This document shows positions 2,233-18,978 of a DNA stretch of 64,000 nt, piece by piece. This DNA comes from an uncultured Alphaproteobacteria bacterium (GTDB taxonomy: Bacteria > Pseudomonadota > Alphaproteobacteria > Rs-D84), in NCBI GenBank assembly GCA_947054455.1, contig CAMRWN010000002.1:19976-83975 (forward strand). Reading direction: 5' to 3'. Positions within the stretch are counted from its first letter, which is position 1, and each line of letters starts with the position of its first letter. The notes beneath the pieces are model-generated. The model saw only the letters and a program-made list of their open reading frames with translations. It did not search any database and was not told where the DNA came from. The translations under genes and the position numbers were made by a program.

Positions 2233-4014
2233 ATGACCTACAATGCCAAAGATTTGAAAGAAATGTCAAACGCCGTGCGCACGGATGCGTTGCGTGCGAT
2301 ACTGTCCGCCCGCAGCGGGCATGTCGGAATCGTACTGGGTGCGGCGGATATTATAACAACCGTGTATGCAAATTTCCTGCGCCGCGGGGTGGACAAGTTT
2401 GTGCTGTCCGCCGGACACGGCAGCGCGCTGCTGTATGCCACGCTTAATCTGGCTGGATACGGGGCAGGCGATTTGAATGAGTTTCGCAAAATAGGCGGTT
2501 TGCCCGGGCATCCGGAATTCGGAATATCAGGTGTTGACGCGACGACCGGGCCGCTGGGCCAGGGTGTCGGAAACGCGGTGGGGCTGGCGCTGGCGGAAAA
2601 AATGAAGAAATCCGGCGGCCGTACATACTGTCTGTGTTCCGACGGCGACTTGATGGAGGGTGTAGCCCAAGAGGCGGTCGCATTTGCAGGCCGGTATCGT
2701 TTGGACAATCTGGTGCTGATGTGGGATGACAACGGAATCAGCATAGACGGCGTGGCGCAGACTGATTTTGATATTCCTGCGCGAATGCGTGCGGCGGACT
2801 GGCACGTTTTGTCGGTGGATGGAAACGATTCTTACGAGGTTAATCGTGCGCTGAAAGACGCGTCAAAATCCACGCGCCCCGTTTTTATTCAATGCAGGAC
2901 GAAAATCGGACTGGGGGCCAGCGTGGCCGGCACGCCGCGCGCGCACGGATACGGATTGGATGCGGATGAAATCGGCGAACTGATAAACAAACTGGCGTCT
3001 GCGCGCGGGGGTGAATTATGGCGCCAGGTACGCGAAGCATCACGCAATGTCGTTTTGTCGCGTCCGCGTTGCGATATGTCTGGTGTTCGCACGCCCGATG
3101 CGCCGGATATGATATCAACGCGTGAATTGTCCGGTCTGTTTATAAATGAAATGCTGCGCGCCGGCGTTCGGATTGTCGGGGGCAGTGCCGATTTGGGCGG
3201 CAGTACAAACGCCAAGGTTGCGTTGTCGCGGCCGATTGCGCCCGGCGATTTCAATGGCAATTATATTGACTATGGCGTGCGGGAACACGCGATGGGCGCA
3301 ATAATGAACGGATTGGCGGCGGCGGGGTTGCGGCCGTACGGTGCGACATTTTTGGTGTTCAGTGATTATATGCGTCCCGCGATGCGTATTTCCGCGTTGT
3401 CGGGGCTGCCGGTTGTGTATGTGTTCACGCACGACAGTGTCGCCGTCGGCGAAGACGGCCCCACGCATCAGCCGGTGGAACAGCTGCCCGGGCTGCGCAT
3501 GATTCCGGGAATGGATGTCTGGCGCCCCTGTAATATGGCAGAGGTTGCATTTGCCTGGCGCAGCGCGGTCGCGCTGGCGGGCGGGCCTTCGTGCATTGTT
3601 TTGTCGCGTCAAAAGGTCAGACAGATTCCAACGCCCGCGGATGCAGATATTGCCTGCGGCGGGTATGTTATACGTCCCGCCCGCGGCCGGCGCGTGCGCG
3701 CAACGATTGTCGCCACCGGGTCAGAGGTTTCTTTGGCTGCGGATATAGCGGACCGGCTGGGGGATGGCGTACAGGTTGTTTCAATGCCGTCTGTGGGCGC
3801 GTTTCGCGCACAGTCCGTGCAGTATAAACAGAAAATATTGCGCGGTACCGTCATTGCGATAGAGGCGGCCGCCACCGCGCCATGGTTTGAATTTGCAGAC
3901 GCGGTTGTCGGCATCGACAGATTTGGCCTGTCGGGGGCGGGTGATGCGGTTTATTCGGCGCTGGGGTTTGATGCTGATGCGATTGCGGCCGATTTGCGCA
4001 AAAAAATAAAATAG
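2233..4014 (+). CDS. tkt: Transketolase
   Basis: 593-aa ORF with a GH..G thiamine-diphosphate N-terminal region, the SDGDLMEGVAQEA motif, and pyrimidine-binding and C-terminal domains. Confidence 0.85.
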   Translation: MTYNAKDLKEMSNAVRTDALRAILSARSGHVGIVLGAADIITTVYANFLRRGVDKFVLSAGHGSALLYATLNLAGYGAGDLNEFRKIGGLPGHPEFGISGVDATTGPLGQGVGNAVGLALAEKMKKSGGRTYCLCSDGDLMEGVAQEAVAFAGRYRLDNLVLMWDDNGISIDGVAQTDFDIPARMRAADWHVLSVDGNDSYEVNRALKDASKSTRPVFIQCRTKIGLGASVAGTPRAHGYGLDADEIGELINKLASARGGELWRQVREASRNVVLSRPRCDMSGVRTPDAPDMISTRELSGLFINEMLRAGVRIVGGSADLGGSTNAKVALSRPIAPGDFNGNYIDYGVREHAMGAIMNGLAAAGLRPYGATFLVFSDYMRPAMRISALSGLPVVYVFTHDSVAVGEDGPTHQPVEQLPGLRMIPGMDVWRPCNMAEVAFAWRSAVALAGGPSCIVLSRQKVRQIPTPADADIACGGYVIRPARGRRVRATIVATGSEVSLAADIADRLGDGVQVVSMPSVGAFRAQSVQYKQKILRGTVIAIEAAATAPWFEFADAVVGIDRFGLSGAGDAVYSALGFDADAIAADLRKKIK

Positions 4015-4023
4015 TTTCGGAAT

Positions 4024-4731
4024 ATGTCTGAATATGTGTTTGTTTCATCTGTCGGCGAAGAGTTTCCCGTCATTATCACGACACGACGTGGGCTGCGCAA
4101 TATAACGCTGCGGCCGAAAACATCGCCTGTGCGTGAAATTCATATGTCAAAGCCGTGGCTGGTTCGGGATGCGGACGCACTGCGATTCCTGGAATCAAAA
4201 CGACGGTGGATAGAGCGAATATTTGCAAAAACGCCTGCAAAATCTGCGTTGGCGCCCGGCGATGAAATAGAATTTCTGGGGATGAATGTGGTTTTGCGTC
4301 ATGACGGGGCGCGGCGTTCTAATGAAATTATACGTCATGACGACGCGCATGCGACGCTGATAATCGGGGGCGGGGCTGATATGTTCGAACGGCGCGTCCG
4401 TGATTTTATCCGCACGGAATTCCTGTGCGCGGTAAAGCGGATTATAAAGACCGCGCCGCGTGAATTTCACCCGCAAAGAATTGCCATCCGCGACACGTCG
4501 TCGCGATGGGGCAGCTGCTCGTCCAGCGGCGCAATGTCTTTTTCGTGGCGGCTGGCGTTCGCGCCGACCGATGTCATGCGTTATGTCATTATGCATGAAT
4601 TGGCGCATGTGCGGCATATGAATCATTCCGCCGAATTTTGGGCAACAGTGTCTGAATTGTACGGTTTTGGTGTGGAACGCGCAAAACGCTGGTTGACGGT
4701 GCATGGCGGTGAATTGCATAGGTATTTTTAA
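4024..4731 (+). CDS. YgjP-like (DUF45/M48-related) zinc metallohydrolase
   Basis: 235-aa ORF with a C-terminal HELAHxxHxNHS motif (MHELAHVRHMNHSAEFW). Confidence 0.7.
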   Translation: MSEYVFVSSVGEEFPVIITTRRGLRNITLRPKTSPVREIHMSKPWLVRDADALRFLESKRRWIERIFAKTPAKSALAPGDEIEFLGMNVVLRHDGARRSNEIIRHDDAHATLIIGGGADMFERRVRDFIRTEFLCAVKRIIKTAPREFHPQRIAIRDTSSRWGSCSSSGAMSFSWRLAFAPTDVMRYVIMHELAHVRHMNHSAEFWATVSELYGFGVERAKRWLTVHGGELHRYF

Positions 4732-4909
4732 CGTAAAAAAGCTTGATTTTGCCTAAAAGACCGCTAAAATCAATACGTGTTTAATAATTTTGTTGTTTTT
4801 GCGGTTTTGCATCACGCCCATGCGGGCGAATGTTAGCGTTTACGATACACATATGATATAATATTGCATGAATATGCATAGGTTTTTGCGTAAAACATAG
4901 GAATAAAAA

Positions 4910-6211
4910 ATGGATTTGAAACCAACAAAACCGCTGTCCGGATTTATAGAACTGCTGCCCGCGCAGCAGCGCTGCTTCGATGAATGTGCTGGTCGCATGC
5001 TGGATGTGCTGCGTACGGCCGGATTCTCAAATTTGGATTTGCCCGCCATAGAACGGGCCGAGGTTCTGACCGACAAAGACAACTGGGACGAAATAGAAAC
5101 GCAGATGTTTTTGTTTAAAAAGGGCGATACAAAAATGGGGCTGCGCTATGACGGGACGGTCGGGTTGTCGCGTTATGTCGCGGGGCATTTGAATGATTTG
5201 ACATTCCCATTCCGCGCCAGCCAGTTTTCCAAACGTTATCGCGGCGAGCGCGCGCAGCGTGGCAGATATCGTGAATTTTATCAGATGGACATGGATATTA
5301 TGGGCATAAATTCGCTGTCTTCGAATTATGATGCCGAAATTATCTGTGTGATTCAACGTGCGCTGAATTCGGTTCGCGAATTTATTGGCGAAAACCGCGT
5401 TTTGGTCGGCAGTCGTCCGTTCTGGGATGCTCTTTTTGACTATTTGGAAATGTCTGACGCTCAGAAAAAATCTGTTTTTGTTTTAATTGATAAAAAAGAC
5501 AAAATGGGCGACGACGATTTTGCCGAAGGCCTGTCCGAGGCATTGTCTGACGCGGACAAGGAAAATAAAATTAAATCGGTCTTTACAGACGGTTATCAGA
5601 ATTTCTTAAACAAATCTGACAAGTTGGATTCCGCTGTTCGCGAATTGACTGATTTTATGAAAATATTGGATGAAATCGGTGTAAAAAACGCCGAAATCGA
5701 CCTGGCTATTACGCGCGGATTGGCATATTATACCGGTCTGGTGTTTGAATTTAAATTAATCGAACATCCCGAACTGGGGACGGCGGCTGGCGGCGGCCGT
5801 TATGCCGACCTGGCTGGCAAATTCAGCAAGACCAAGATAATAGGTGTTGGCGCGGCGATTGGTTTTTCGCGCATGTTTGTCGCATTGTTGGAAAGCGGGC
5901 AGATTGATTTGTCGCGTTTTGAAAATCCGATTGATGCAGCCGTTCTGGTCATGGGTGCGGCAAACACGGGGTATGCAATGCGTGTTTTGAATGCGCTGCG
6001 TGATGAAAATATCGTTGCTGTCGCGTACTTGGATGCCGACAAGAAATTCAAAAACCAAATTGAATACGCCGATAAAATCAAGGCAAAATACAGTATAATA
6101 ATTGGCGAAGATGAAGTAAAAAATCAGGCTTTGTCAGTTAAGAATATGACGACAGGACAGCAGTGTGCAATGTCTGTGGTCGATGCGGTAAAATTACTAA
6201 AGAACGTGTAA
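4910..6211 (+). CDS. hisS: Histidine--tRNA ligase
   Basis: 433-aa class II aaRS-like ORF (GLRYDGTV, RYREFYQ, GGGRYADL) with a C-terminal anticodon-binding-like domain. Confidence 0.8.
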   Translation: MDLKPTKPLSGFIELLPAQQRCFDECAGRMLDVLRTAGFSNLDLPAIERAEVLTDKDNWDEIETQMFLFKKGDTKMGLRYDGTVGLSRYVAGHLNDLTFPFRASQFSKRYRGERAQRGRYREFYQMDMDIMGINSLSSNYDAEIICVIQRALNSVREFIGENRVLVGSRPFWDALFDYLEMSDAQKKSVFVLIDKKDKMGDDDFAEGLSEALSDADKENKIKSVFTDGYQNFLNKSDKLDSAVRELTDFMKILDEIGVKNAEIDLAITRGLAYYTGLVFEFKLIEHPELGTAAGGGRYADLAGKFSKTKIIGVGAAIGFSRMFVALLESGQIDLSRFENPIDAAVLVMGAANTGYAMRVLNALRDENIVAVAYLDADKKFKNQIEYADKIKAKYSIIIGEDEVKNQALSVKNMTTGQQCAMSVVDAVKLLKNV

Positions 6212-6212
6212 A

Positions 6213-7277
6213 ATGATTATAGAACAGAAACTGAAAGATATTCAAAGCAGGGCCGCCGATATAGAGGCGCAGATGAATTCCGGTACAATTTCCGGCGAGG
6301 AGTTGACCAGACTGTCCAAGGAGTATTCAAGATTGTCGGAGATATTGCCACTGATATCGCAGTATTTTCAGATAGCACAGGGCATTGCCGACGCGACAGA
6401 GATGCAGCATGACCCAGAATTGCGCGCGCTGGCGTTGGAGCAGCTGAGCGAGTTGAATCACGCACTGCCGGATGTTGAACGCAGTTTGCAGATAGCGTTG
6501 CTGCCGCGCGATGATGCCGACGACAACAGTGTTATTATGGAAATCCGCGCAGGTGTCGGTGGCGAAGAATCCGCGCTGTTTGCCGGGGATTTGTTCAACC
6601 AGTATAAATCGTATGCCTTGCGCCAGGGCTGGAAGGTCGAGGTTATCGAAGAAAATGCAACGTCGTTGCGCGGCTACAAGGAAGTTGTCTTTAAAATAGA
6701 CGGCGCGGGTGCGTATGGCCGCATGAAGTTTGAATCCGGCATTCACCGTGTTCAGCGTGTTCCTGAAACCGAGGCGGGCGGCCGTATTCATACCAGTGCG
6801 GCATCGGTCGCAGTCATGCCCGAGGCCAAGGATATAGACGTTGTCATAGAAGACAAGGATATAAGAATCGACGTGTTTCGCGCGTCTGGTGCCGGCGGCC
6901 AGCACGTTAACAAAACCGACAGTGCAATCCGAATAACGCACTTTCCGTCGGGATTGGTCGTTACATGCCAGAATGAGCGCAGTCAGTTCCAGAACAAGGC
7001 GGCGGCAATGGCTGTTTTGCGTTCGAAACTGTATGAAAAGCAGCGTATGGAGCAGATGAATGCGTCAAATGCCTCGCGAAAGTCGATGGTTGGCTCCGGC
7101 GACCGCAGCGAAAAAATACGTACCTATAATTTCCCGGAGCAGCGCGTGACCGACCACAGAATAAAGCTGACACTGTACAAGTTGGATGATATTCTGGCCG
7201 GCGGCGGCGGGCTGGACGAAATGATTGACGCGCTGATTGCAGCCGATCAATTGGAAAGATTGACCAGTATGGAATAA
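6213..7277 (+). CDS. prfA: Peptide chain release factor 1
   Basis: GGQHVN motif and an RVQRVPETE (PxT-type) tripeptide region. Starts 2 nt after the hisS stop. Confidence 0.9.
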   Translation: MIIEQKLKDIQSRAADIEAQMNSGTISGEELTRLSKEYSRLSEILPLISQYFQIAQGIADATEMQHDPELRALALEQLSELNHALPDVERSLQIALLPRDDADDNSVIMEIRAGVGGEESALFAGDLFNQYKSYALRQGWKVEVIEENATSLRGYKEVVFKIDGAGAYGRMKFESGIHRVQRVPETEAGGRIHTSAASVAVMPEAKDIDVVIEDKDIRIDVFRASGAGGQHVNKTDSAIRITHFPSGLVVTCQNERSQFQNKAAAMAVLRSKLYEKQRMEQMNASNASRKSMVGSGDRSEKIRTYNFPEQRVTDHRIKLTLYKLDDILAGGGGLDEMIDALIAADQLERLTSME

Positions 7278-8552: not shown

Positions 8553-8984
8553 AGTGGTGTGCAGGTGGGCGTGCGATATAGCCAGAAATCGGGCGCATTT
8601 GTATCGTATTTTTTTTTGTGTAAAGCGCGCAATAAAGGACGGGTATATATTCAGTATTTCCCGGATATTATTGTATTGTTTTTATAAAATAATTTATCAC
8701 TACGTTTGCGACGTTATGTATAGTTTTTTTGCGGGCGGGGGCTTGTTTAGATGATTTTATTGATGGGGTGTGAATGTGGTTTTTTGGGGTTTGGTTCGGG
8801 GTTAAATTGGTGCTGTAAATGATGTGTTGTGTAAATATTGGCTGGTTGGGTTGTTTTTGTTTGTTGTGGGGATGGGGGGGCTTTTTTTATACTTCTCGGG
8901 GCGGTGTTCCGGTTTGGGGTTGTGTGTTTGGATTTTTTTTGATGAAAAACTGGTGAAAAAATATCGTAAGGGTGGTATATCAAA

Positions 8985-9012
8985 AAGGCGCATAATTTAT
9001 ATTATGTATAGT
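8985..9012. other. dif-like XerC/D site (attL, host-type XerC arm)
   Basis: AAGGCGCATAA-TTTATA-TTATGTATAGT matches 21 of 28 positions of E. coli dif as I recall it (GGTGCGCATAATGTATATTATGTTAAAT). Confidence 0.8.
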
Positions 9013-9086
9013 TTACAAAGTGTGCCCTATCGGGTTAATATTTGATTTTACGATATAAATCGCAAAACCGACTTTATACAGATATA

Positions 9087-9221
9087 TTAAAGTCGTTTGT
9101 TAACTTTCCTATATCTAGTATCTTCTTTATACCATGCTCTTGCTCGAACACGAGAAAGAACGTACTCGAAAAACAAAGACAAAAACATAGCAAAAAAAAC
9201 AGAAAATAAAATCAACAACAT
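9087..9221 (-). CDS. 44-aa membrane peptide (N-terminal TM, basic tail), phage copy 1
   Basis: MLLILFSVFFAMFLSLFFEYVLSRVRARAWYKEDTRYRKVNKRL. The ATG directly follows the VP2 stop (GGAGGCAGTAAATG), with a GGAGG SD inside the VP2 end. Below the ORF-track cutoff. Confidence 0.6.
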   Translation of the reverse strand: MLLILFSVFFAMFLSLFFEYVLSRVRARAWYKEDTRYRKVNKRL

Positions 9222-10025
9222 TTACTGCCTCCATGCGCCAACAGCGGCAAGAGCCAATTCAGAAGGCGATATATAAAGCCTATCCAAATTCTGAATATCA
9301 CGACCAGTAGCACGCTTATAATCATCAGCTATCTTCATTCGTAACTGAGGACTTACAACATCACCATTAAGACCTATAGAACCATTCCTATAAGCATATT
9401 GCAAAGAAGACAAATAACCAGCATTATCAGAATCATTTTCTGTTACATCCTGATTAACCATCAATCGAGGGTCACCATTCAAGTCATATGCAATTCTAAA
9501 TAACTGAGAATCTGTACCAATAGGAGGCTGTTCGGTATTACCAGAAGGCATACCAGGCTGACGCATAATATTAAGTTCAGCCCTCATTGTATCGTTACGG
9601 ATACGCTTGGCCTCAAGGTCAAGATCCCTGCTCTCTTGCTCCTGACGATTAAAGATTTGCGAAATCCTATTAATAGCAGAAGATATCGCGCTACCTTTCT
9701 GATATCCAGCATCAGAATTGCCACCAGCACTCATGGTAGGACTAACATTTGAAGAAACACCCAAGGCGGCAAGAGGATTTATACCGGCCTTAAGGGCATC
9801 TCGAACTCGATACTGAGTCGCATTCTTCTGAAAGTCCATTTGCTCGTTAAATTGACGACGAGCCTCATGACGATTATGACGAGATTCTTTCTTACTAGAA
9901 GAAGAACCAAACAAACCACCAATTAAATCACCGACGGCACCAACACCGGCACCAATAAAAGAACCAAGTCCGGGGGAAATAGAAGTACCCAAAGTAGCAC
10001 CAGTTGCAGTTAGTTCACCTGCCAT
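9222..10025 (-). CDS. Microviridae minor capsid/DNA pilot protein (VP2/H-like), copy 1
   Basis: 267 aa with a Gly-rich N-terminus and QMDFQKNATQYRVRDALKAGINPLAALG, the conserved pilot-protein motif. Confidence 0.8.
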   Translation of the reverse strand: MAGELTATGATLGTSISPGLGSFIGAGVGAVGDLIGGLFGSSSSKKESRHNRHEARRQFNEQMDFQKNATQYRVRDALKAGINPLAALGVSSNVSPTMSAGGNSDAGYQKGSAISSAINRISQIFNRQEQESRDLDLEAKRIRNDTMRAELNIMRQPGMPSGNTEQPPIGTDSQLFRIAYDLNGDPRLMVNQDVTENDSDNAGYLSSLQYAYRNGSIGLNGDVVSPQLRMKIADDYKRATGRDIQNLDRLYISPSELALAAVGAWRQ

Positions 10026-10453
10026 TATTCACACCTTATTATTATTCCAGGGCGACGTGGTTTCTGTCCACCTTTTCCAGACTTTCCCTTAGCAAACAAC
10101 ACTTCACGACGCTCTCTACGCTGTACGCAAACTGGATGTTGCCTTGGTAAATCTACCTGAATTCTACCATACTGGCCAACAGAAATCAAGCCTATATTAT
10201 TTTGGTCCTGTACCGCCAAACGATTAGCGCGCTTTATATCCCGGCGGGACATATTAAGACGGCGCATCCTTTCGGATGGTACAGGGGGTACAAAGGGCCG
10301 TGTCGGTCGTATTTGTTCTCGACTAGACGGCCCTAATACAGACCGCAAGCCCCGTAGACGAGGGTCTACGAGAATGGACCTCGCCATTCGGGTTGCGGGA
10401 GTTGTTAATTTATCAACTCGATTTTGTCTTCTTATTCGTCTTCTCAAACTCAT
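10025..10453 (-). CDS. Arg-rich basic phage protein of unknown function, copy 1
   Basis: 142 aa starting MSLRRRIRRQNR. Its TAATG stop/start overlap with VP2 implies translational coupling. Confidence 0.6.
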   Translation of the reverse strand: MSLRRRIRRQNRVDKLTTPATRMARSILVDPRLRGLRSVLGPSSREQIRPTRPFVPPVPSERMRRLNMSRRDIKRANRLAVQDQNNIGLISVGQYGRIQVDLPRQHPVCVQRRERREVLFAKGKSGKGGQKPRRPGIIIRCE

Positions 10454-10492
10454 AACAAAATCCTGTCAATACGCACATACATAGACAAGCCA

Positions 10493-11023
10493 CTATGATG
10501 TATGTGCTCCGTCAGAAGCTTCTGGAGTATTGCTCGGCATGCCTGAGGGCTCTAAAGAGCCCGCAGGAACGGCCTCATCGGCCGATACTCCTGCTACAGG
10601 CATCAAAGGCTCTGCCGGCTTGCCGGCAGGCATTTTAGGCTCAGCAGCGGGGGATATCACTTCACCGAATTCATCTCGAACTTCGGTATTGTCCAACAGA
10701 CTATCATCATTCGGGTCCTCTTCGGGGTCATTCGTGAACATTTCGCCAAGAGCGAACTGCATCGAAGCACGGGAAGCAGACACCGCGGCGGCCAATCTAT
10801 CATAACGAGCGATACGCTCAGCAAGAGTTTCAGTCTTACGAATCCGGTCCACAAGCGGACCACGAACATGAACCTCATTACCATATTCATCCAGGTAAAT
10901 CTTGGCCTTTTCATTCCTAGACTTACTCAACGATTTTGACAAACGTTCAAATTCAGCATTTGCCAGGTCATGGCCAATATTACGAGCACGGGCCAAAATA
11001 AATGATTCTTTACTTATTTTCAT
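10493..11023 (-). CDS. Phage protein with acidic/Pro-rich C-terminus (candidate internal scaffolding protein), copy 1
   Basis: 176-aa ORF 11 nt downstream of the capsid gene. The scaffold call rests only on position and composition. Confidence 0.4.
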   Translation of the reverse strand: MKISKESFILARARNIGHDLANAEFERLSKSLSKSRNEKAKIYLDEYGNEVHVRGPLVDRIRKTETLAERIARYDRLAAAVSASRASMQFALGEMFTNDPEEDPNDDSLLDNTEVRDEFGEVISPAAEPKMPAGKPAEPLMPVAGVSADEAVPAGSLEPSGMPSNTPEASDGAHTS

Positions 11024-11034
11024 TTCATATTCCT

Positions 11035-12531
11035 TTATCTAAAACGAGGGTTACCATTCGGAGATACCATATTACGCTCGATAAACGTATTACGTATAGC
11101 CGCGGCCTCAACATGAGGCGAATTTTCCATATCATTAAAAATACGAGGTGATGGATTACACTCTAAAAAGTCAGAATTTAACTCAGGAGCAGTCGTAAAG
11201 ACTCGACCTTGATGATATACCAGGTTAGTACTTTTCATAGATCCAGACACGTCATTAAGAGAACTACGATACTCATCGTAACGGTTATAGTAACCCCAAC
11301 GCTGATTATCTTGCTCTTCATTACCAGTCGGGAACAAAATTCCTTTCTTCATTTCAGCCATACCAACATGGGCAAATTCCGGAGTATAAATATCCTCACG
11401 AACATCGAAAGCCCATTCCATAGGCTGAATATTAACATACAAGGGAGCCGGCCGGATACAAACCAAATGTATAACAGTCGATGGCTCTTCGAAGTATGTC
11501 TTATAAGAACATGAACCATAACCAGTAGCAGTTCCACCACGTTGTCCAACGTATGAACTGGTCCCGGGGGCTGTCTGCAAAACACCATTAACATCCATCA
11601 TAGAACGACCATGAGCCAAGGTTTCAGGTAACTGCAAACGACGGTCGGAATACTTAATACCTAAATATGCCAACCAATCACGAAACCTCGAACCATACAG
11701 ATTACGTTTTATCTTCCAGGCCTGTTGCGCCATCGCAAAATTAAAGTCAGAAGGCAATATGCCAGTCGATTGAGAAAGATCTGCAGTTAATCCTTCAATT
11801 ACACCAGAAGACTGAGCACTATATGAGGTTTGATTAGTAACATCACCACCAGGATTAACAAAAGAACCATTTGGTAAACCTGTAACTACTTTTAAAGAAC
11901 CTCTTGAAGTAGAAATCAAATTAGAATTACCAACAACAGGTGCAGAAGTTGCAAAAGGTATTACAACCTCATCACCAAGCTGTTCCTCGACCAAGGAAGT
12001 AGTAAAAATATCCTTGGGCCAATTCATATGCCACAACTGTGTATTAGTAACAGTATCAAGGCCAGAGGCAGTAGATACAGGCAATTTTTCCTGTATATTA
12101 GGATCTAATACATGCTCATTTATCCACATAGCATATAAACGGAACGGCAAAGCGTTACACTTAAGATTAGGAACACCAGTAGCAAAACCTAAATGGTCGG
12201 CCAAAGAACCAACAGGCCAACCGCCTTCAGCCGGGGCAAGTATATAAGGCGGAACCGGACGAGTATTACCGTCTTCACCACCTGTATAAAAATCCTCAGC
12301 ATCATCCCATAAAATACGGTCATAGCCTGATATAGCAAACGTATCAACACGCATCTGGGTCAATGATTGACGAGCCAGGGAAGCCATTTGAAAGCCACCA
12401 GCAACACCTCCTCGAACAGTAGTACCAGCTATACAATGCCTGGCCGCAGTAGGAACCAATTCGGCCATATTAAAGCTTGTAATACGAGTATTCGAACGAT
12501 TATGATTATATCTTTTTAATCGAACTACCAT
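11035..12531 (-). CDS. Microviridae major capsid protein (F/VP1), copy 1
   Basis: Motifs SFNMAELVP, LPFRLYAMWINEH, DIFTTS and GSRFRDWLAYLGIKYSDRRLQLPETL. Start set at ATG 12531 (GGAGAAAAAAAAGATG) rather than the ORF-track start at 12582. Confidence 0.95.
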   Translation of the reverse strand: MVVRLKRYNHNRSNTRITSFNMAELVPTAARHCIAGTTVRGGVAGGFQMASLARQSLTQMRVDTFAISGYDRILWDDAEDFYTGGEDGNTRPVPPYILAPAEGGWPVGSLADHLGFATGVPNLKCNALPFRLYAMWINEHVLDPNIQEKLPVSTASGLDTVTNTQLWHMNWPKDIFTTSLVEEQLGDEVVIPFATSAPVVGNSNLISTSRGSLKVVTGLPNGSFVNPGGDVTNQTSYSAQSSGVIEGLTADLSQSTGILPSDFNFAMAQQAWKIKRNLYGSRFRDWLAYLGIKYSDRRLQLPETLAHGRSMMDVNGVLQTAPGTSSYVGQRGGTATGYGSCSYKTYFEEPSTVIHLVCIRPAPLYVNIQPMEWAFDVREDIYTPEFAHVGMAEMKKGILFPTGNEEQDNQRWGYYNRYDEYRSSLNDVSGSMKSTNLVYHQGRVFTTAPELNSDFLECNPSPRIFNDMENSPHVEAAAIRNTFIERNMVSPNGNPRFR

Positions 12532-12615
12532 CTTTTTTTTCTCCAAAATTAAAAAACAATTGACGATAAACCATATAATCATATATGGTCATCTGCTTAT
12601 ATTCTCGATTTTTCA

Positions 12616-12702
12616 TCAATTAAAACCAAAAAAAGCACCAACGGCACCAACAATAGCACCAACAATTCCCCAGGCAAATTTTACCCATTTCATAGTATTC
12701 AT
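12616..12702 (-). CDS. 28-aa glycine-zipper hydrophobic peptide, copy 1
   Basis: MNTMKWVKFAWGIVGAIVGAVGAFFGFN. GGAGG lies 6 nt upstream and the ATG overlaps the Rep stop (TTATGA). Below the ORF-track cutoff. Confidence 0.6.
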   Translation of the reverse strand: MNTMKWVKFAWGIVGAIVGAVGAFFGFN

Positions 12703-13568
12703 AAATACCTCCTATGTCTTAATTTATCAGATTTTTTATCAAGTTTTTCGCGCTCTTGCCATTTCGGCCGAAGAATATCAGAAATTTCTTTCCAACTTAA
12801 CGGCACGCACGACACAGTTTCGCGAATCTTCTCTTTAACCAGAAAATCCTTGAACCTCTTCTGGTCGCTGAATTCTTGTTGTTCTTCCTCATTATATAAT
12901 TTCCAAATATTACGAAGCTTATCGCGAATATACCGAGGCAAACGAATCCATTTACCACCAATACGAACGCTAAACGGAGGATAAGCATAATTCAAAACAC
13001 GCTCACGAAATGACTCATCAGTAGCGAATTTCTCAAGTATATCATAAAGTAAACCATACCCTAAGGCAGGTTTCCTCGATGCCAAGAAAAATTCAGGTGT
13101 GCGACCGTCAAGACGAACATCACCTGATTTAGTCATTTTCTTTGTAACATAGCCAGATATATAATCACAACGACCATAAGTCATGTGGTCTATATCGACA
13201 TTACCAAAACGCCAAGCCTTACGTAATGCATCAAAGCAATCACTATCGGCAAAGACAGCAACATGATAATGTGCACGCTCTGTATCATCACCATATTCAC
13301 CAACTAAAAAAGTCCGGGGAGTATAGCCAAGAAAATATTCAAGACGTTTTTTGAACTTTTTAGCAGTTTCCTTGGACAAACAACCATCGGCCGGATAAAA
13401 CTCCGGGGAGTAAGTCAATCCAACGAAATAATTATAATTATGGTAACGCATTTCTATTTTAAGCCTATCGGCCCACTCTTTCTTCTTATTCTTCAAACAA
13501 CCTGGACACTTACCGCAAGAAGTGAAACCAAGTGAACTTGAATAATTTGGATTTGTACAATAAGCCAT
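12699..13568 (-). CDS. Microviridae replication initiator (HUH endonuclease, VP4/A-like), copy 1
   Basis: Motifs FVGLTYSP, HYHVAVF (HUH) and YISGYVTKK. The likely start is ATG 13568 (MAYCTNP). The ORF-track GTG start at 13691 lies inside the dif-like site. Confidence 0.9.
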   Translation of the reverse strand: MAYCTNPNYSSSLGFTSCGKCPGCLKNKKKEWADRLKIEMRYHNYNYFVGLTYSPEFYPADGCLSKETAKKFKKRLEYFLGYTPRTFLVGEYGDDTERAHYHVAVFADSDCFDALRKAWRFGNVDIDHMTYGRCDYISGYVTKKMTKSGDVRLDGRTPEFFLASRKPALGYGLLYDILEKFATDESFRERVLNYAYPPFSVRIGGKWIRLPRYIRDKLRNIWKLYNEEEQQEFSDQKRFKDFLVKEKIRETVSCVPLSWKEISDILRPKWQEREKLDKKSDKLRHRRYL

Positions 13569-13657
13569 TAATACGTACGCGCACGACGACGGTACAAGCG
13601 GCGTGCACCAGTACGCATACGCAAACGACGACGTAAACGATAACGACGAAATCTCAT
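13568..13657 (-). CDS. 29-aa Arg-rich DNA-binding protein (J/VP8-like), copy 1
   Basis: MRFRRYRLRRRLRMRTGARRLYRRRARTY has 15 Arg in 29 aa. An AGGAG lies upstream, and the stop overlaps the Rep ATG (TAATG). Below the ORF-track cutoff. Confidence 0.65.
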   Translation of the reverse strand: MRFRRYRLRRRLRMRTGARRLYRRRARTY

Positions 13658-13682
13658 GCCCTACTCCTATATATAGATGGAT

Positions 13683-13710
13683 AAGGCGCACTATTTATAT
13701 TATGTATAGT
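13683..13710. other. dif-like site between the two phage copies (phage-type attP)
   Basis: AAGGCGCACTA-TTTATA-TTATGTATAGT differs from the 8985 site only at positions 9-10 (TA to CT). Confidence 0.8.
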
Positions 13711-13784
13711 TTACAAAGTGTGCCCTATCGGGTTAATATTTGATTTTACGATATAAATCGCAAAACCGACTTTATACAGATATA

Positions 13785-13919
13785 TTAAAGTCGTTTGTTA
13801 ACTTTCCTATATCTAGTATCTTCTTTATACCATGCTCTTGCTCGAACACGAGAAAGAACGTACTCGAAAAACAAAGACAAAAACATAGCAAAAAAAACAG
13901 AAAATAAAATCAACAACAT
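13785..13919 (-). CDS. 44-aa membrane peptide, phage copy 2
   Basis: Matches 9087-9221 at +4698 (the tracked flanking ORFs are identical). Confidence 0.6.
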   Translation of the reverse strand: MLLILFSVFFAMFLSLFFEYVLSRVRARAWYKEDTRYRKVNKRL

Positions 13920-14723
13920 TTACTGCCTCCATGCGCCAACAGCGGCAAGAGCCAATTCAGAAGGCGATATATAAAGCCTATCCAAATTCTGAATATCACG
14001 ACCAGTAGCACGCTTATAATCATCAGCTATCTTCATTCGTAACTGAGGACTTACAACATCACCATTAAGACCTATAGAACCATTCCTATAAGCATATTGC
14101 AAAGAAGACAAATAACCAGCATTATCAGAATCATTTTCTGTTACATCCTGATTAACCATCAATCGAGGGTCACCATTCAAGTCATATGCAATTCTAAATA
14201 ACTGAGAATCTGTACCAATAGGAGGCTGTTCGGTATTACCAGAAGGCATACCAGGCTGACGCATAATATTAAGTTCAGCCCTCATTGTATCGTTACGGAT
14301 ACGCTTGGCCTCAAGGTCAAGATCCCTGCTCTCTTGCTCCTGACGATTAAAGATTTGCGAAATCCTATTAATAGCAGAAGATATCGCGCTACCTTTCTGA
14401 TATCCAGCATCAGAATTGCCACCAGCACTCATGGTAGGACTAACATTTGAAGAAACACCCAAGGCGGCAAGAGGATTTATACCGGCCTTAAGGGCATCTC
14501 GAACTCGATACTGAGTCGCATTCTTCTGAAAGTCCATTTGCTCGTTAAATTGACGACGAGCCTCATGACGATTATGACGAGATTCTTTCTTACTAGAAGA
14601 AGAACCAAACAAACCACCAATTAAATCACCGACGGCACCAACACCGGCACCAATAAAAGAACCAAGTCCGGGGGAAATAGAAGTACCCAAAGTAGCACCA
14701 GTTGCAGTTAGTTCACCTGCCAT
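13920..14723 (-). CDS. Microviridae pilot protein (VP2/H-like), copy 2
   Basis: Translation identical to 9222-10025. Confidence 0.8.
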   Translation of the reverse strand: MAGELTATGATLGTSISPGLGSFIGAGVGAVGDLIGGLFGSSSSKKESRHNRHEARRQFNEQMDFQKNATQYRVRDALKAGINPLAALGVSSNVSPTMSAGGNSDAGYQKGSAISSAINRISQIFNRQEQESRDLDLEAKRIRNDTMRAELNIMRQPGMPSGNTEQPPIGTDSQLFRIAYDLNGDPRLMVNQDVTENDSDNAGYLSSLQYAYRNGSIGLNGDVVSPQLRMKIADDYKRATGRDIQNLDRLYISPSELALAAVGAWRQ

Positions 14724-15151
14724 TATTCACACCTTATTATTATTCCAGGGCGACGTGGTTTCTGTCCACCTTTTCCAGACTTTCCCTTAGCAAACAACAC
14801 TTCACGACGCTCTCTACGCTGTACGCAAACTGGATGTTGCCTTGGTAAATCTACCTGAATTCTACCATACTGGCCAACAGAAATCAAGCCTATATTATTT
14901 TGGTCCTGTACCGCCAAACGATTAGCGCGCTTTATATCCCGGCGGGACATATTAAGACGGCGCATCCTTTCGGATGGTACAGGGGGTACAAAGGGCCGTG
15001 TCGGTCGTATTTGTTCTCGACTAGACGGCCCTAATACAGACCGCAAGCCCCGTAGACGAGGGTCTACGAGAATGGACCTCGCCATTCGGGTTGCGGGAGT
15101 TGTTAATTTATCAACTCGATTTTGTCTTCTTATTCGTCTTCTCAAACTCAT
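14723..15151 (-). CDS. Arg-rich basic phage protein, copy 2
   Basis: Translation identical to 10025-10453. Confidence 0.6.
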   Translation of the reverse strand: MSLRRRIRRQNRVDKLTTPATRMARSILVDPRLRGLRSVLGPSSREQIRPTRPFVPPVPSERMRRLNMSRRDIKRANRLAVQDQNNIGLISVGQYGRIQVDLPRQHPVCVQRRERREVLFAKGKSGKGGQKPRRPGIIIRCE

Positions 15152-15190
15152 AACAAAATCCTGTCAATACGCACATACATAGACAAGCCA

Positions 15191-15721
15191 CTATGATGTA
15201 TGTGCTCCGTCAGAAGCTTCTGGAGTATTGCTCGGCATGCCTGAGGGCTCTAAAGAGCCCGCAGGAACGGCCTCATCGGCCGATACTCCTGCTACAGGCA
15301 TCAAAGGCTCTGCCGGCTTGCCGGCAGGCATTTTAGGCTCAGCAGCGGGGGATATCACTTCACCGAATTCATCTCGAACTTCGGTATTGTCCAACAGACT
15401 ATCATCATTCGGGTCCTCTTCGGGGTCATTCGTGAACATTTCGCCAAGAGCGAACTGCATCGAAGCACGGGAAGCAGACACCGCGGCGGCCAATCTATCA
15501 TAACGAGCGATACGCTCAGCAAGAGTTTCAGTCTTACGAATCCGGTCCACAAGCGGACCACGAACATGAACCTCATTACCATATTCATCCAGGTAAATCT
15601 TGGCCTTTTCATTCCTAGACTTACTCAACGATTTTGACAAACGTTCAAATTCAGCATTTGCCAGGTCATGGCCAATATTACGAGCACGGGCCAAAATAAA
15701 TGATTCTTTACTTATTTTCAT
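15191..15721 (-). CDS. Candidate internal scaffolding protein, copy 2
   Basis: Translation identical to 10493-11023. Confidence 0.4.
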   Translation of the reverse strand: MKISKESFILARARNIGHDLANAEFERLSKSLSKSRNEKAKIYLDEYGNEVHVRGPLVDRIRKTETLAERIARYDRLAAAVSASRASMQFALGEMFTNDPEEDPNDDSLLDNTEVRDEFGEVISPAAEPKMPAGKPAEPLMPVAGVSADEAVPAGSLEPSGMPSNTPEASDGAHTS

Positions 15722-15732
15722 TTCATATTCCT

Positions 15733-17229
15733 TTATCTAAAACGAGGGTTACCATTCGGAGATACCATATTACGCTCGATAAACGTATTACGTATAGCCG
15801 CGGCCTCAACATGAGGCGAATTTTCCATATCATTAAAAATACGAGGTGATGGATTACACTCTAAAAAGTCAGAATTTAACTCAGGAGCAGTCGTAAAGAC
15901 TCGACCTTGATGATATACCAGGTTAGTACTTTTCATAGATCCAGACACGTCATTAAGAGAACTACGATACTCATCGTAACGGTTATAGTAACCCCAACGC
16001 TGATTATCTTGCTCTTCATTACCAGTCGGGAACAAAATTCCTTTCTTCATTTCAGCCATACCAACATGGGCAAATTCCGGAGTATAAATATCCTCACGAA
16101 CATCGAAAGCCCATTCCATAGGCTGAATATTAACATACAAGGGAGCCGGCCGGATACAAACCAAATGTATAACAGTCGATGGCTCTTCGAAGTATGTCTT
16201 ATAAGAACATGAACCATAACCAGTAGCAGTTCCACCACGTTGTCCAACGTATGAACTGGTCCCGGGGGCTGTCTGCAAAACACCATTAACATCCATCATA
16301 GAACGACCATGAGCCAAGGTTTCAGGTAACTGCAAACGACGGTCGGAATACTTAATACCTAAATATGCCAACCAATCACGAAACCTCGAACCATACAGAT
16401 TACGTTTTATCTTCCAGGCCTGTTGCGCCATCGCAAAATTAAAGTCAGAAGGCAATATGCCAGTCGATTGAGAAAGATCTGCAGTTAATCCTTCAATTAC
16501 ACCAGAAGACTGAGCACTATATGAGGTTTGATTAGTAACATCACCACCAGGATTAACAAAAGAACCATTTGGTAAACCTGTAACTACTTTTAAAGAACCT
16601 CTTGAAGTAGAAATCAAATTAGAATTACCAACAACAGGTGCAGAAGTTGCAAAAGGTATTACAACCTCATCACCAAGCTGTTCCTCGACCAAGGAAGTAG
16701 TAAAAATATCCTTGGGCCAATTCATATGCCACAACTGTGTATTAGTAACAGTATCAAGGCCAGAGGCAGTAGATACAGGCAATTTTTCCTGTATATTAGG
16801 ATCTAATACATGCTCATTTATCCACATAGCATATAAACGGAACGGCAAAGCGTTACACTTAAGATTAGGAACACCAGTAGCAAAACCTAAATGGTCGGCC
16901 AAAGAACCAACAGGCCAACCGCCTTCAGCCGGGGCAAGTATATAAGGCGGAACCGGACGAGTATTACCGTCTTCACCACCTGTATAAAAATCCTCAGCAT
17001 CATCCCATAAAATACGGTCATAGCCTGATATAGCAAACGTATCAACACGCATCTGGGTCAATGATTGACGAGCCAGGGAAGCCATTTGAAAGCCACCAGC
17101 AACACCTCCTCGAACAGTAGTACCAGCTATACAATGCCTGGCCGCAGTAGGAACCAATTCGGCCATATTAAAGCTTGTAATACGAGTATTCGAACGATTA
17201 TGATTATATCTTTTTAATCGAACTACCAT
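15733..17229 (-). CDS. Microviridae major capsid protein (F/VP1), copy 2
   Basis: Translation identical to 11035-12531. Confidence 0.95.
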   Translation of the reverse strand: MVVRLKRYNHNRSNTRITSFNMAELVPTAARHCIAGTTVRGGVAGGFQMASLARQSLTQMRVDTFAISGYDRILWDDAEDFYTGGEDGNTRPVPPYILAPAEGGWPVGSLADHLGFATGVPNLKCNALPFRLYAMWINEHVLDPNIQEKLPVSTASGLDTVTNTQLWHMNWPKDIFTTSLVEEQLGDEVVIPFATSAPVVGNSNLISTSRGSLKVVTGLPNGSFVNPGGDVTNQTSYSAQSSGVIEGLTADLSQSTGILPSDFNFAMAQQAWKIKRNLYGSRFRDWLAYLGIKYSDRRLQLPETLAHGRSMMDVNGVLQTAPGTSSYVGQRGGTATGYGSCSYKTYFEEPSTVIHLVCIRPAPLYVNIQPMEWAFDVREDIYTPEFAHVGMAEMKKGILFPTGNEEQDNQRWGYYNRYDEYRSSLNDVSGSMKSTNLVYHQGRVFTTAPELNSDFLECNPSPRIFNDMENSPHVEAAAIRNTFIERNMVSPNGNPRFR

Positions 17230-17313
17230 CTTTTTTTTCTCCAAAATTAAAAAACAATTGACGATAAACCATATAATCATATATGGTCATCTGCTTATAT
17301 TCTCGATTTTTCA

Positions 17314-17400
17314 TCAATTAAAACCAAAAAAAGCACCAACGGCACCAACAATAGCACCAACAATTCCCCAGGCAAATTTTACCCATTTCATAGTATTCAT
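17314..17400 (-). CDS. 28-aa glycine-zipper hydrophobic peptide, copy 2
   Basis: Matches 12616-12702 at +4698. Confidence 0.6.
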   Translation of the reverse strand: MNTMKWVKFAWGIVGAIVGAVGAFFGFN

Positions 17401-18266
17401 AAATACCTCCTATGTCTTAATTTATCAGATTTTTTATCAAGTTTTTCGCGCTCTTGCCATTTCGGCCGAAGAATATCAGAAATTTCTTTCCAACTTAACG
17501 GCACGCACGACACAGTTTCGCGAATCTTCTCTTTAACCAGAAAATCCTTGAACCTCTTCTGGTCGCTGAATTCTTGTTGTTCTTCCTCATTATATAATTT
17601 CCAAATATTACGAAGCTTATCGCGAATATACCGAGGCAAACGAATCCATTTACCACCAATACGAACGCTAAACGGAGGATAAGCATAATTCAAAACACGC
17701 TCACGAAATGACTCATCAGTAGCGAATTTCTCAAGTATATCATAAAGTAAACCATACCCTAAGGCAGGTTTCCTCGATGCCAAGAAAAATTCAGGTGTGC
17801 GACCGTCAAGACGAACATCACCTGATTTAGTCATTTTCTTTGTAACATAGCCAGATATATAATCACAACGACCATAAGTCATGTGGTCTATATCGACATT
17901 ACCAAAACGCCAAGCCTTACGTAATGCATCAAAGCAATCACTATCGGCAAAGACAGCAACATGATAATGTGCACGCTCTGTATCATCACCATATTCACCA
18001 ACTAAAAAAGTCCGGGGAGTATAGCCAAGAAAATATTCAAGACGTTTTTTGAACTTTTTAGCAGTTTCCTTGGACAAACAACCATCGGCCGGATAAAACT
18101 CCGGGGAGTAAGTCAATCCAACGAAATAATTATAATTATGGTAACGCATTTCTATTTTAAGCCTATCGGCCCACTCTTTCTTCTTATTCTTCAAACAACC
18201 TGGACACTTACCGCAAGAAGTGAAACCAAGTGAACTTGAATAATTTGGATTTGTACAATAAGCCAT
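17397..18266 (-). CDS. Microviridae replication initiator (VP4/A-like), copy 2
   Basis: Translation identical to 12699-13568. Confidence 0.9.
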   Translation of the reverse strand: MAYCTNPNYSSSLGFTSCGKCPGCLKNKKKEWADRLKIEMRYHNYNYFVGLTYSPEFYPADGCLSKETAKKFKKRLEYFLGYTPRTFLVGEYGDDTERAHYHVAVFADSDCFDALRKAWRFGNVDIDHMTYGRCDYISGYVTKKMTKSGDVRLDGRTPEFFLASRKPALGYGLLYDILEKFATDESFRERVLNYAYPPFSVRIGGKWIRLPRYIRDKLRNIWKLYNEEEQQEFSDQKRFKDFLVKEKIRETVSCVPLSWKEISDILRPKWQEREKLDKKSDKLRHRRYL

Positions 18267-18355
18267 TAATACGTACGCGCACGACGACGGTACAAGCGGC
18301 GTGCACCAGTACGCATACGCAAACGACGACGTAAACGATAACGACGAAATCTCAT
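18266..18355 (-). CDS. 29-aa Arg-rich J/VP8-like protein, copy 2
   Basis: Matches 13568-13657 at +4698. Confidence 0.65.
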   Translation of the reverse strand: MRFRRYRLRRRLRMRTGARRLYRRRARTY

Positions 18356-18380
18356 GCCCTACTCCTATATATAGATGGAT

Positions 18381-18408
18381 AAGGCGCACTATTTATATTA
18401 TGTATAGT
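18381..18408. other. dif-like site (attR, phage-type XerC arm)
   Basis: Same 28-mer as 13683-13710. Identity to the phage ends at 18410, after which host flank begins (tgtgttctgg). Confidence 0.8.
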
Positions 18409-18978
18409 TTTGTGTTCTGGTGGGCGCGAAAATGGCTATTTGTGTATATTTGTATGACTTTAATAAATCGTGTGCGTGGGACTAATTGATTGCTATCTTT
18501 TTATGAGAGTTTATAACGATAAAATGTGTATAAAAATATCTGTTAGTTTTATTATGAAAAAAGTTAATAAATTATTTTTAATAATTAAAATAATTTGTTG
18601 AATATATGAATATAATTTAATTTATCTGTTCGTGTTAAACATACTCATGGTTTATGCTGTTTTTATTATATTTGATGCATATTTGGCATCTGTTATACGT
18701 TTTTGTGTTTTATCATGATTATTTTGTTGCGTGATTATGTGAAAATATGTGGATATCGTCTTGATTTTGGCGGATTTTAATGGATTTTTCGTAAAATAAG
18801 CCGTAAAAACCGTGAAAAACCGCAGAAATCCGGGATTTTTTGCGTTTTTTAATATGTTTTTTACAAATTTTGTGCTTAATTTACCTGATTTGCTGCGGTT
18901 TGCCCTATAAAATACTTGAATTTGATTGGTGCAACGGCTAAAATTTTAACTGTTTAAATTAAAATTTTACCATAGGCG

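Follow-up and report, generated by a model that had tools for sequence, protein, structure and literature searches.

A conserved family of minimal hydrophobic peptides encoded behind rep in temperate microviruses of small-genome gut Alphaproteobacteria

Introduction

Microviruses are among the most abundant phages of the gut and of the environment. For most of their families no lysis gene is known, and outside the phiX174 group and the families that have acquired peptidases the mode of lysis or host manipulation is unknown (PMC9239249). The window analysed here, a stretch of 64,000 nucleotides from an uncultured alphaproteobacterium, carries a microvirus prophage in which a 28-codon hydrophobic frame is squeezed in behind the replication gene. 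Does so short a frame encode a protein and, if so, what might that protein do? The initial annotation had guessed at a lysis, holin-like or superinfection-exclusion function. We addressed the question by comparing the frame across related phages, by measuring selection on it, and by weighing the possible functions against the other small genes of these genomes.

Results

A 28-codon gene within a tandem microvirus prophage

The frame belongs to a microvirus prophage that occurs twice; the units follow each other head to tail and show 0 mismatches across 4659 nt. In window coordinates, the features of the locus are:

8976..18410, minus strand: tandem dimer of a 4698-bp microvirus prophage; three dif-like motifs bound and separate the units
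8976-9014, 13674-13712 and 18372-18410: dif-like motifs, the limits of the tandem microvirus units
9087..9221, minus strand: post-pilot small ORF, probably membrane, 44 aa (MLLILFSVFFAMFLSLFFEYVLSRVRARAWYKEDTRYRKVNKRL); predicted TM helix and basic tail, GGAGG, TAAATG after the pilot gene
11035..12531, minus strand: major capsid protein (Phage_F; PF02305, E = 2.6e-57; alignment with relatives)
12506..12619, minus strand: 36/37-aa non-membrane ORF (MKNREYKQMTIYDY..., MKNREYKQMTIYDYMVYRQLFFNFGEKKDGSSIKKI) between the peptide and the capsid start
12616..12702, minus strand: gene of the predicted 28-aa membrane peptide, copy 1 (translation; homologues in 20 other phage genomes; frame-specific pN/pS of 0.34)
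12708..12713, minus strand: Shine-Dalgarno sequence AGGAGG of copy 1, with a 5-nt spacer (TATTT) to the peptide ATG
12699..13568, minus strand: Rep, HUH replication initiator, with a likely ATG at 13568 (PF23343, E = 8.5e-14)
13785-13919, minus strand: post-pilot ORF of the second unit, as at 9087-9221
17314..17400, minus strand: identical copy 2 of the peptide gene, within the second unit of the tandem
17406..17411, minus strand: Shine-Dalgarno sequence of copy 2 (copy 1 plus 4698 bp; identity checked)

On the minus strand the genes run in the order Rep, 28-aa peptide, 37-aa ORF, capsid, 176-aa ORF, 142-aa ORF, pilot protein (267 aa; PHROG 'pilot protein') and 44-aa ORF. The identical second copy of the peptide gene exists because the whole 4698-bp phage unit was duplicated in tandem. 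The open frame of Rep reaches 13691 (330 codons). As judged from a GGAG motif and from alignment with relatives, the capsid protein probably starts with MVVRLKRYNHNRSNTR at 12531, behind GGAGAAAAAAAAG; the listed capsid ORF begins at 12582 (MIIWFIVNC...), and the same two observations favour 12531 instead.

The peptide gene consists of 28 codons and a TGA, is initiated by an ATG, and translates exactly into the hydrophobic product that had been annotated, MNTMKWVKFAWGIVGAIVGAVGAFFGFN. Its glycines follow the pattern G12-xx-G15-xxx-G19-xx-G22-xxx-G26, with alanines at positions 10, 16, 20 and 23. The DNA on the 5' side of the gene reads ...CAT AGG AGG TAT TTA TGA AT..., in which the peptide ATG (12702-12700) and the Rep TGA share ATGA, inside TTATGA; the overlap of start and stop codon was thus correctly called. 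The penultimate Arg-Arg codons of Rep constitute the AGGAGG; the annotated 'GGAGG 6 nt upstream' was essentially right as well.

Behind the peptide gene, the 36/37-aa ORF overlaps the peptide stop as TTGATGA. An ORF start resembling it is found in L008 (MKKKYKQMTIFDF), while the slot holds unrelated soluble ORFs of 40-76 aa, or none, in other relatives. These differing occupants mark the stretch between the peptide and the capsid gene as a variable cassette site.

The host assembly amounts to 728 kb in 4 contigs (86% completeness). Genomes from the same order measure 0.6-1.1 Mb, and 20 of 328 of them carry some microvirus capsid gene. The presence of MraY and LpxC identifies the host as a diderm that makes both peptidoglycan and LPS, and its earlier description as Gram-negative is right.

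Conservation of the peptide among related phages

The nearest phages in GenBank, at 47-66% capsid identity, are Microvirus mar6, bajarodmic viruses 910, 786 and 626, and Dipodfec virus Rod_962. All five have an unannotated hydrophobic ORF of 26-27 aa between Rep and capsid, and the peptide is also carried by prophages of the sister genomes G231, G126 and G145, which belong to the host genus. A search of 5.8 billion proteins showed the capsid clade to be large: more than 120 members share 45-78% identity, and most of them lie on Logan contigs of 4.7 kb. When 12 of these were sampled across the range of capsid identity, 11 matched the peptide profile in the slot after Rep. In total, a homologue of 26-28 aa is the first ORF after Rep in 21 of the 23 genomes examined, which yield 19 distinct sequences; in the two exceptions the slot holds an amphipathic 30-mer (L041) or a non-hydrophobic 41-mer (L076). 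The initial annotation had named as its refutation the lack of a phenotype on expression combined with a frame not conserved in related phages; as the frame is kept among related microviruses, that combination fails.

The clade consists of temperate, dif-integrating microviruses whose hosts belong to a single genus of gut Alphaproteobacteria with small genomes (0.7-1.1 Mb). GenBank holds five genomes of it only, and the more than 120 capsid relatives come from Logan/ENA assemblies, where several lie on contigs of 100-685 kb and are prophages.

A profile search of the 328 genomes of the host order gave strong matches only within prophages of the clade and in a microvirus of G245, whose capsid is just 24% identical to the window's and whose peptide is MNSKQWWTLIITCLSSLIGTVGGFFGIF. 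No host-encoded homologue was found in these 328 genomes, and the peptide family is confined to phages of one host genus. On the circular map of the G245 phage the peptide is again the first gene after Rep, with a dif-like attachment site lying between the two instead of between the post-pilot ORF and Rep. The G245 prophage (L069, G245:C4:18500-29000; phage strand about 2636-7137) is ~4.5 kb long, has dif-like flanks, resides in the same host genus, and has, ahead of Rep, a J-like ORF of 27 aa that is rich in Arg.

The translation signals are kept along with the frame. All 21 copies have a Shine-Dalgarno sequence (GGAG in 16, AGGA or AAGG in all 21), and 19 overlap the Rep stop, 13 as ATGA and 6 as TAATG. 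The Arg-Arg codons of Rep that form the Shine-Dalgarno sequence are AGG-AGA or AGG-AGG, although AGG is rare, making up only 9% of Arg codons in these phages. The two uncoupled copies, in G245 and in bajarodmic virus 626 (L006), where an ORF is inserted, have kept a Shine-Dalgarno sequence of their own. L006 (PQ006836) and L005 (PQ007023) are close relatives with an identical peptide. In PQ006836 a 47-aa ORF stands between Rep and peptide, and the peptide gene, which has acquired its own AAGGAG, adjoins the capsid start (TAAaATG). More generally, the peptide stop often lies 1 nt from the next ORF start (TAAaATG).

Three subtypes share one helix face

A first MAFFT alignment, of two subtypes, opened a 7-residue gap and was dropped once the intermediates G245 and L073 fitted ungapped. 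The alignment used here is ungapped and is supported by these intermediate forms. It comprises three subtypes: subtype 1 has the Gly zipper (window, mar6 and others), subtype 2 is Thr/Cys-rich (MNSKAWTIAICTALTTFITQILQFLGV), and subtype 3 is represented by MNRKNWFELIKAVVMAALGYLTGIYL, with G245, L073 and L078 as intermediates between them. M1, W6 and G26 are invariant in an alignment of nine sequences. In the table of columns for 17 sequences M1 and W6 remain invariant and column 26 is Leu in subtype 3, and L078, which is outside both sets, has Ser6-Trp7.

The layout is a short positive N-terminus (M-N/T-x-x-x-W) followed by ~20 hydrophobic residues. The start M-N/T/K is partly explained by the ATGA overlap, which requires codon 2 to begin with A, and the N-terminal position of the positive charges suggests an N-in orientation. 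The hydrophobic stretch ends 1-2 residues before the C-terminus, and the peptide has no soluble domain and no Pro. In subtype 3 the presumed helix contains Glu8 and Lys11, and the unbroken hydrophobic run is only ~15 residues long.

Columns 12, 15, 16, 19, 23 and 26 hold a small residue (G/A/S/T/C) in 71-100% of sequences, and column 22 does so in 65%; columns 14, 18, 21, 24 and 25 are bulky. On a helical wheel the small-residue vector points to 94-129 degrees in every sequence of all three subtypes. This common direction implies that the packing face is conserved and not the glycines as such. The Gly pattern noted in the initial annotation is present in the window peptide and in subtype 1 at large (G15xxxG19, G22xxxG26), but it is not the conserved feature, since subtypes 2 and 3 swap most Gly for Thr, Ser, Ala or Gln. 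The Pfam Gly-zipper models gave no match to the window peptide.

The peptide contains neither a lipobox (L-[ASTVI]-[GAS]-C) nor a signal peptide. Subtypes 1 and 3 are without Cys, and Cys11 of subtype 2 stands in the context I-A-I-C with only ~6 hydrophobic residues before it.

Selection acts on the peptide frame

To measure constraint we applied the Nei-Gojobori method to eight phylogenetically independent pairs. This gave pS = 0.50, pN = 0.17 and pN/pS = 0.34 (Fisher p = 2.4e-14), as against pN/pS of 1.06 and 1.50 when the same DNA was read in the +1 and +2 frames. Nucleotide differences at codon positions 1, 2 and 3 numbered 44, 25 and 82, and the length holds at 26-28 aa though synonymous sites are half saturated. 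The amino-acid sequence of the peptide is under frame-specific purifying selection. With synonymous sites so diverged, an element at the level of DNA or RNA is excluded as the cause of conservation.

These values bear directly on the possibility that the frame has no function as a protein, being either a chance ORF or a regulatory uORF that couples termination of Rep to expression of the capsid gene. The frame is indeed very short, it is unannotated everywhere, and the proximity of its stop to the next start would suit a coupling device. However, neither version accounts for a pN/pS so far below that of the other frames, for the upkeep of length, W6 and the small-residue stripe across three subtypes, or for the retention of the gene with its own Shine-Dalgarno sequence where it has been relocated (L006) or split from Rep (G245). 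We consider this explanation highly improbable; the gene is almost certainly real and encodes a membrane peptide.

A family outside the curated collections

Permissive searches of Pfam, NCBIfam and PHROGs with the peptide returned only noise at the level of composition, such as TM segments of holins and haemolysins. In Pfam-A at E <= 10 the sole match was XhlA (E = 1.1), and holin-type matches were far below threshold (phrog_126, E = 0.035; TIGR01594, 13.9 bits against a cut-off of 55). Homology to phiX174 E (Microvir_lysis) did not rise above noise in Pfam-A, PHROG or NCBIfam, and a sequence search of the PDB produced only a chance match to the N-terminus of haemoglobin alpha. Against GenBank phages, tblastn with the Gly-zipper peptide found nothing, probably because of low-complexity masking, and with the Thr/Cys-type peptide it found four known relatives only. 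Scans of IMG/VR with back-translated motifs gave 0 matches, and scans of IMG/VR and metagenome contigs with capsid patterns gave few relatives. Ten exact peptide sequences were all absent from ~15 billion predicted proteins. The gene is uncalled in all five GenBank records and all 12 Logan contigs, and we found no mention of it in the literature searched. Common gene callers omit ORFs under about 30 codons, and its length below this limit makes the gene invisible to such pipelines.

The peptides thus form a new small-protein family, of a known kind, the small phage membrane peptides. By sequence they fall outside E, the holins, the lipoproteins and all curated families, and at most would work like them.

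The pilot protein and expression from the prophage

Superinfection exclusion, one of the functions suggested initially, would require the peptide to protect the lysogen: made from the prophage and acting at the inner membrane, it would keep incoming related microviruses from delivering their DNA, one possible means being interference with the N-terminal, Gly-rich helix of their pilot protein. The phage is temperate and its prophages are in tandem. The N-terminus of the pilot protein is Gly/Ala-rich and peptide-like (GAGVGAVG vs GAIVGAVG), and in G245 the peptide is the first prophage gene behind host genes on the same strand, where read-through expression is possible. However, 19 of the 21 peptide genes are coupled to rep and should be silent in a stable lysogen, a promoter and terminator scan gave no signal above shuffled expectation, and the host gene upstream of the prophage in the window is on the opposite strand. 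Furthermore, no co-variation is seen between peptide subtype and pilot N-terminus, as illustrated by L012, which combines a long Gly-zipper pilot with a Thr/Cys-type peptide. Together these observations make exclusion improbable.

The failure of the subtype to track a Gly-rich pilot N-terminus also led us to reject co-variation as a sign of an interaction between peptide and pilot. It weighs against a role in assembly or DNA delivery, in which the peptide would be a chaperone or partner of the pilot, or of membrane-associated replication or packaging, and would have no host target. Such a helper would fit a pilot N-terminus that is generically Gly/Ala-rich in all relatives, and a gene placed between rep and capsid and often stop/start-adjacent to the next ORF. 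On the other hand it has no known precedent in microviruses, and the peptide is kept in a phage, G245, whose pilot and capsid are very divergent. This role seems to us quite improbable.

Other small ORFs of the phages

The initial annotation stated that the phage has neither a peptidase nor a phiX E-like ORF. The first statement is borne out, in that no lysin or peptidase domain is detectable in the ORFs of the window phage. The second is wrong: the 44-aa ORF at 9087-9221 has a predicted N-terminal TM helix and a basic tail, is preceded by GGAGG, and follows the pilot gene. Its start lies next to or overlaps the pilot stop (TAA-ATG in the window). A post-pilot ORF of this kind, led by a Shine-Dalgarno sequence, is found in the window and in 16 of 19 other genomes checked, with lengths of 23-54 aa and fast divergence, and close relatives of the window phage have an RxRAxAW-like motif in its tail. 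By its architecture this ORF is at least as E-like as the peptide and is a rival or partner candidate for lysis. Both ORFs occur in most genomes; G245 and L073 have the peptide alone and L041 the post-pilot ORF alone, while neither is clearly present in L076.

Another E-like candidate, a 63-aa ORF with a putative TM segment and basic tail overprinted in Rep (12797-12988), was rejected, as its TM extension is not conserved. The overprinted Rep frame extends upstream as a non-conserved hydrophobic stretch in the window and in Rod_962. What remains of it is an Arg/Lys-rich ORF of ~31 aa in the Rep +1 frame (12797-12892, minus strand; MRKNNKNSATRRGSRIFWLKRRFAKLCRACR) that ends in CxxC and is also present in L003-L008. 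In relatives it reads ...RLRFLxRLRRICKxC and appears better conserved than the Rep frame that it overlaps. A basic protein that binds DNA or RNA may be hidden here.

A different microvirus clade within this host order has an unrelated family of hydrophobic ORFs of 46-66 aa, led by Shine-Dalgarno sequences, directly upstream of the capsid gene (MN[KR]F[LI]KAVLCILKNATIIIPLIEGVVYS...; L025, L036/L037, L038 and L017, prophages of G305, G113, G172, G264 and G157). Further unrelated ORFs, of 43-55 aa, are found in L016 and L033.

A candidate for lysis or lysis timing

The reading we prefer, tentatively and at less than even confidence, is that the peptide is a lysis or lysis-timing factor, perhaps acting jointly or redundantly with the post-pilot ORF. 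[quoted passage not shown] 2020; PMC7693330). The peptide gene has all three, with 28 codons, AGGAGG and a hydrophobic stretch of ~20 residues. The G245 phage resembles the window phage in having no lysin or peptidase domain in any ORF, and in the G245 and L073 phages the peptide is the sole small TM ORF led by a Shine-Dalgarno sequence. Limitation of the family to one host genus, with no copy in the host, fits a host-specific target.

Several observations speak against lysis. In the screen of that study 178 of 293 candidates with Shine-Dalgarno sequence and TMD were without effect (PMC7693330), and since most were inactive the prior for a lysis role is modest. Validated Sgls are usually fast-evolving and mostly embedded in other genes, with few BLAST matches (PMC7693330). 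Conservation of the peptide, by contrast, equals or exceeds that of the capsid, and it is the post-pilot ORF that shows the typical Sgl pattern of kept position and diverged sequence. The charged residues of subtype 3 shorten the hydrophobic run, and the holin and haemolysin HMM matches are, as described above, far below threshold. Finally, the replacement of the slot in L041 and L076 and the lack of a post-pilot ORF in L076 mean that neither ORF is universal, unlike what is expected of an essential lysis gene. In our estimate it is unlikely that the peptide by itself is the lysis effector of this large clade, with the Rep-to-capsid junction serving as a general 'lysis slot' that unrelated genes for small membrane proteins would occupy in the many microvirus families lacking a known lysis gene.

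The main rival reading is a dispensable accessory membrane modulator that, like phiX174 K, would tune burst size or host physiology by binding a host membrane protein without being the lysis effector; lysis would be carried out by the post-pilot ORF or by an unrecognised overprinted gene. The peptide gene lies at the end of rep, a position matching that of K, and most relatives have a second ORF that is more E-like. The replaced slots of L041 and L076 suggest dispensability, and the strong constraint on the peptide sets it apart from fast-evolving Sgls. Moreover, small regulators that act by binding to a larger membrane protein, such as KdpF, MgtS and AcrZ, typically have this form of a bare helix and a packing face. 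Yet the G245 and L073 phages would be left with no other small TM ORF behind a Shine-Dalgarno sequence to carry out lysis, the peptide has no homology to K or to any family, and purifying selection across a capsid identity of 24% is strong for a dispensable gene. We regard a modulator of this kind as somewhat unlikely.

Discussion

As the first gene after rep on the single phage transcript, the peptide gene is predicted to be translated from the Shine-Dalgarno sequence within the last Arg-Arg codons of Rep, usually through the start/stop overlap (ATGA or TAATG). The product would enter the inner membrane, the N-terminus remaining on the cytoplasmic side, and would work by packing of helices along the conserved stripe of small residues (columns 12, 15/16, 19, 22/23 and 26). 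From there two routes are conceivable: self-assembly into a small pore that dissipates the membrane potential, in the manner of a pinholin or of TisB, or plugging of a host membrane enzyme of envelope synthesis, of the MraY or MurJ type, as with phiX174 E and LysM of phage M.

The likeness to E is that of a small membrane protein in a microvirus without endolysin, and MraY, the target of E, is encoded by the host here. The lytic activity of E resides in its single N-terminal TM helix. E is, however, a protein of 91 aa, overprinted in gene D; its TMD contains a Pro that matters for function, and its C-terminal domain is basic, whereas the peptides have 26-28 aa, a non-overlapping slot of their own after rep, no Pro and no soluble domain. 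Architecturally, with TMD and basic tail, the post-pilot 44-aa ORF is closer to E than the peptide is. With K the peptide shares small size, hydrophobicity, a gene placed at the 3' end of that for Rep (gene A in phiX174) and the lack of an enzymatic domain; K has 56 aa and is overprinted across the A/C junction, while the peptide is half that size and under clear purifying selection. K is membrane-associated, is reported to modulate burst size, and is dispensable in tested conditions (bioRxiv 10.64898/2026.07.25.740675). phiX174, too, encodes a pair of small membrane proteins, of which E brings about lysis and K is encoded where gene A ends; by its position the peptide is K-like.

Sgls of ssRNA phages, such as MS2 L and LysM of phage M, resemble the peptide in the operational criteria, in the translational link to an upstream gene, and in being missed by gene callers. 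They are mostly embedded and very fast-evolving, whereas the peptide family is conserved over deep phage divergence and is a lysis candidate only. Pinholins (S21 of phage 21) and TisB also have a short helix, and a Gly/Ala/Thr face is suited to homo-oligomeric bundles; pinholins, however, have an endolysin partner, which was found in neither the window phage nor the G245 phage, and type I toxins have an antisense-RNA context, which is absent around the peptide gene. Lipobox-dependent lipoproteins differ in having the signal peptide and lipobox that the peptide lacks. Finally, the small ORFs with Shine-Dalgarno sequences upstream of the capsid gene in other microviruses of the host order, among them a family of 46-48 aa, are not homologous to the peptide, which is shorter than any of them, and the shared theme is a small membrane gene in the same neighbourhood.

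Altogether, about seven genes had been recognised in this 4.7-kb genome, to which one more real gene is now added, and its discovery shows that comparative codon analysis of 'intergenic' gaps can recover genes missing from tiny phage genomes. What sets the family apart is how small its members are, how deeply they are conserved, and that three sequence solutions are interchangeable for a single helix face. It also offers a minimal model for the packing of TM helices. It is also a cheaply testable candidate, as a synthetic gene of 27 residues, for a membrane-acting phage function. If the peptide by itself were the lysis effector, no smaller phage lysis protein would be known, for it amounts in essence to a naked TM helix that kills a diderm cell.
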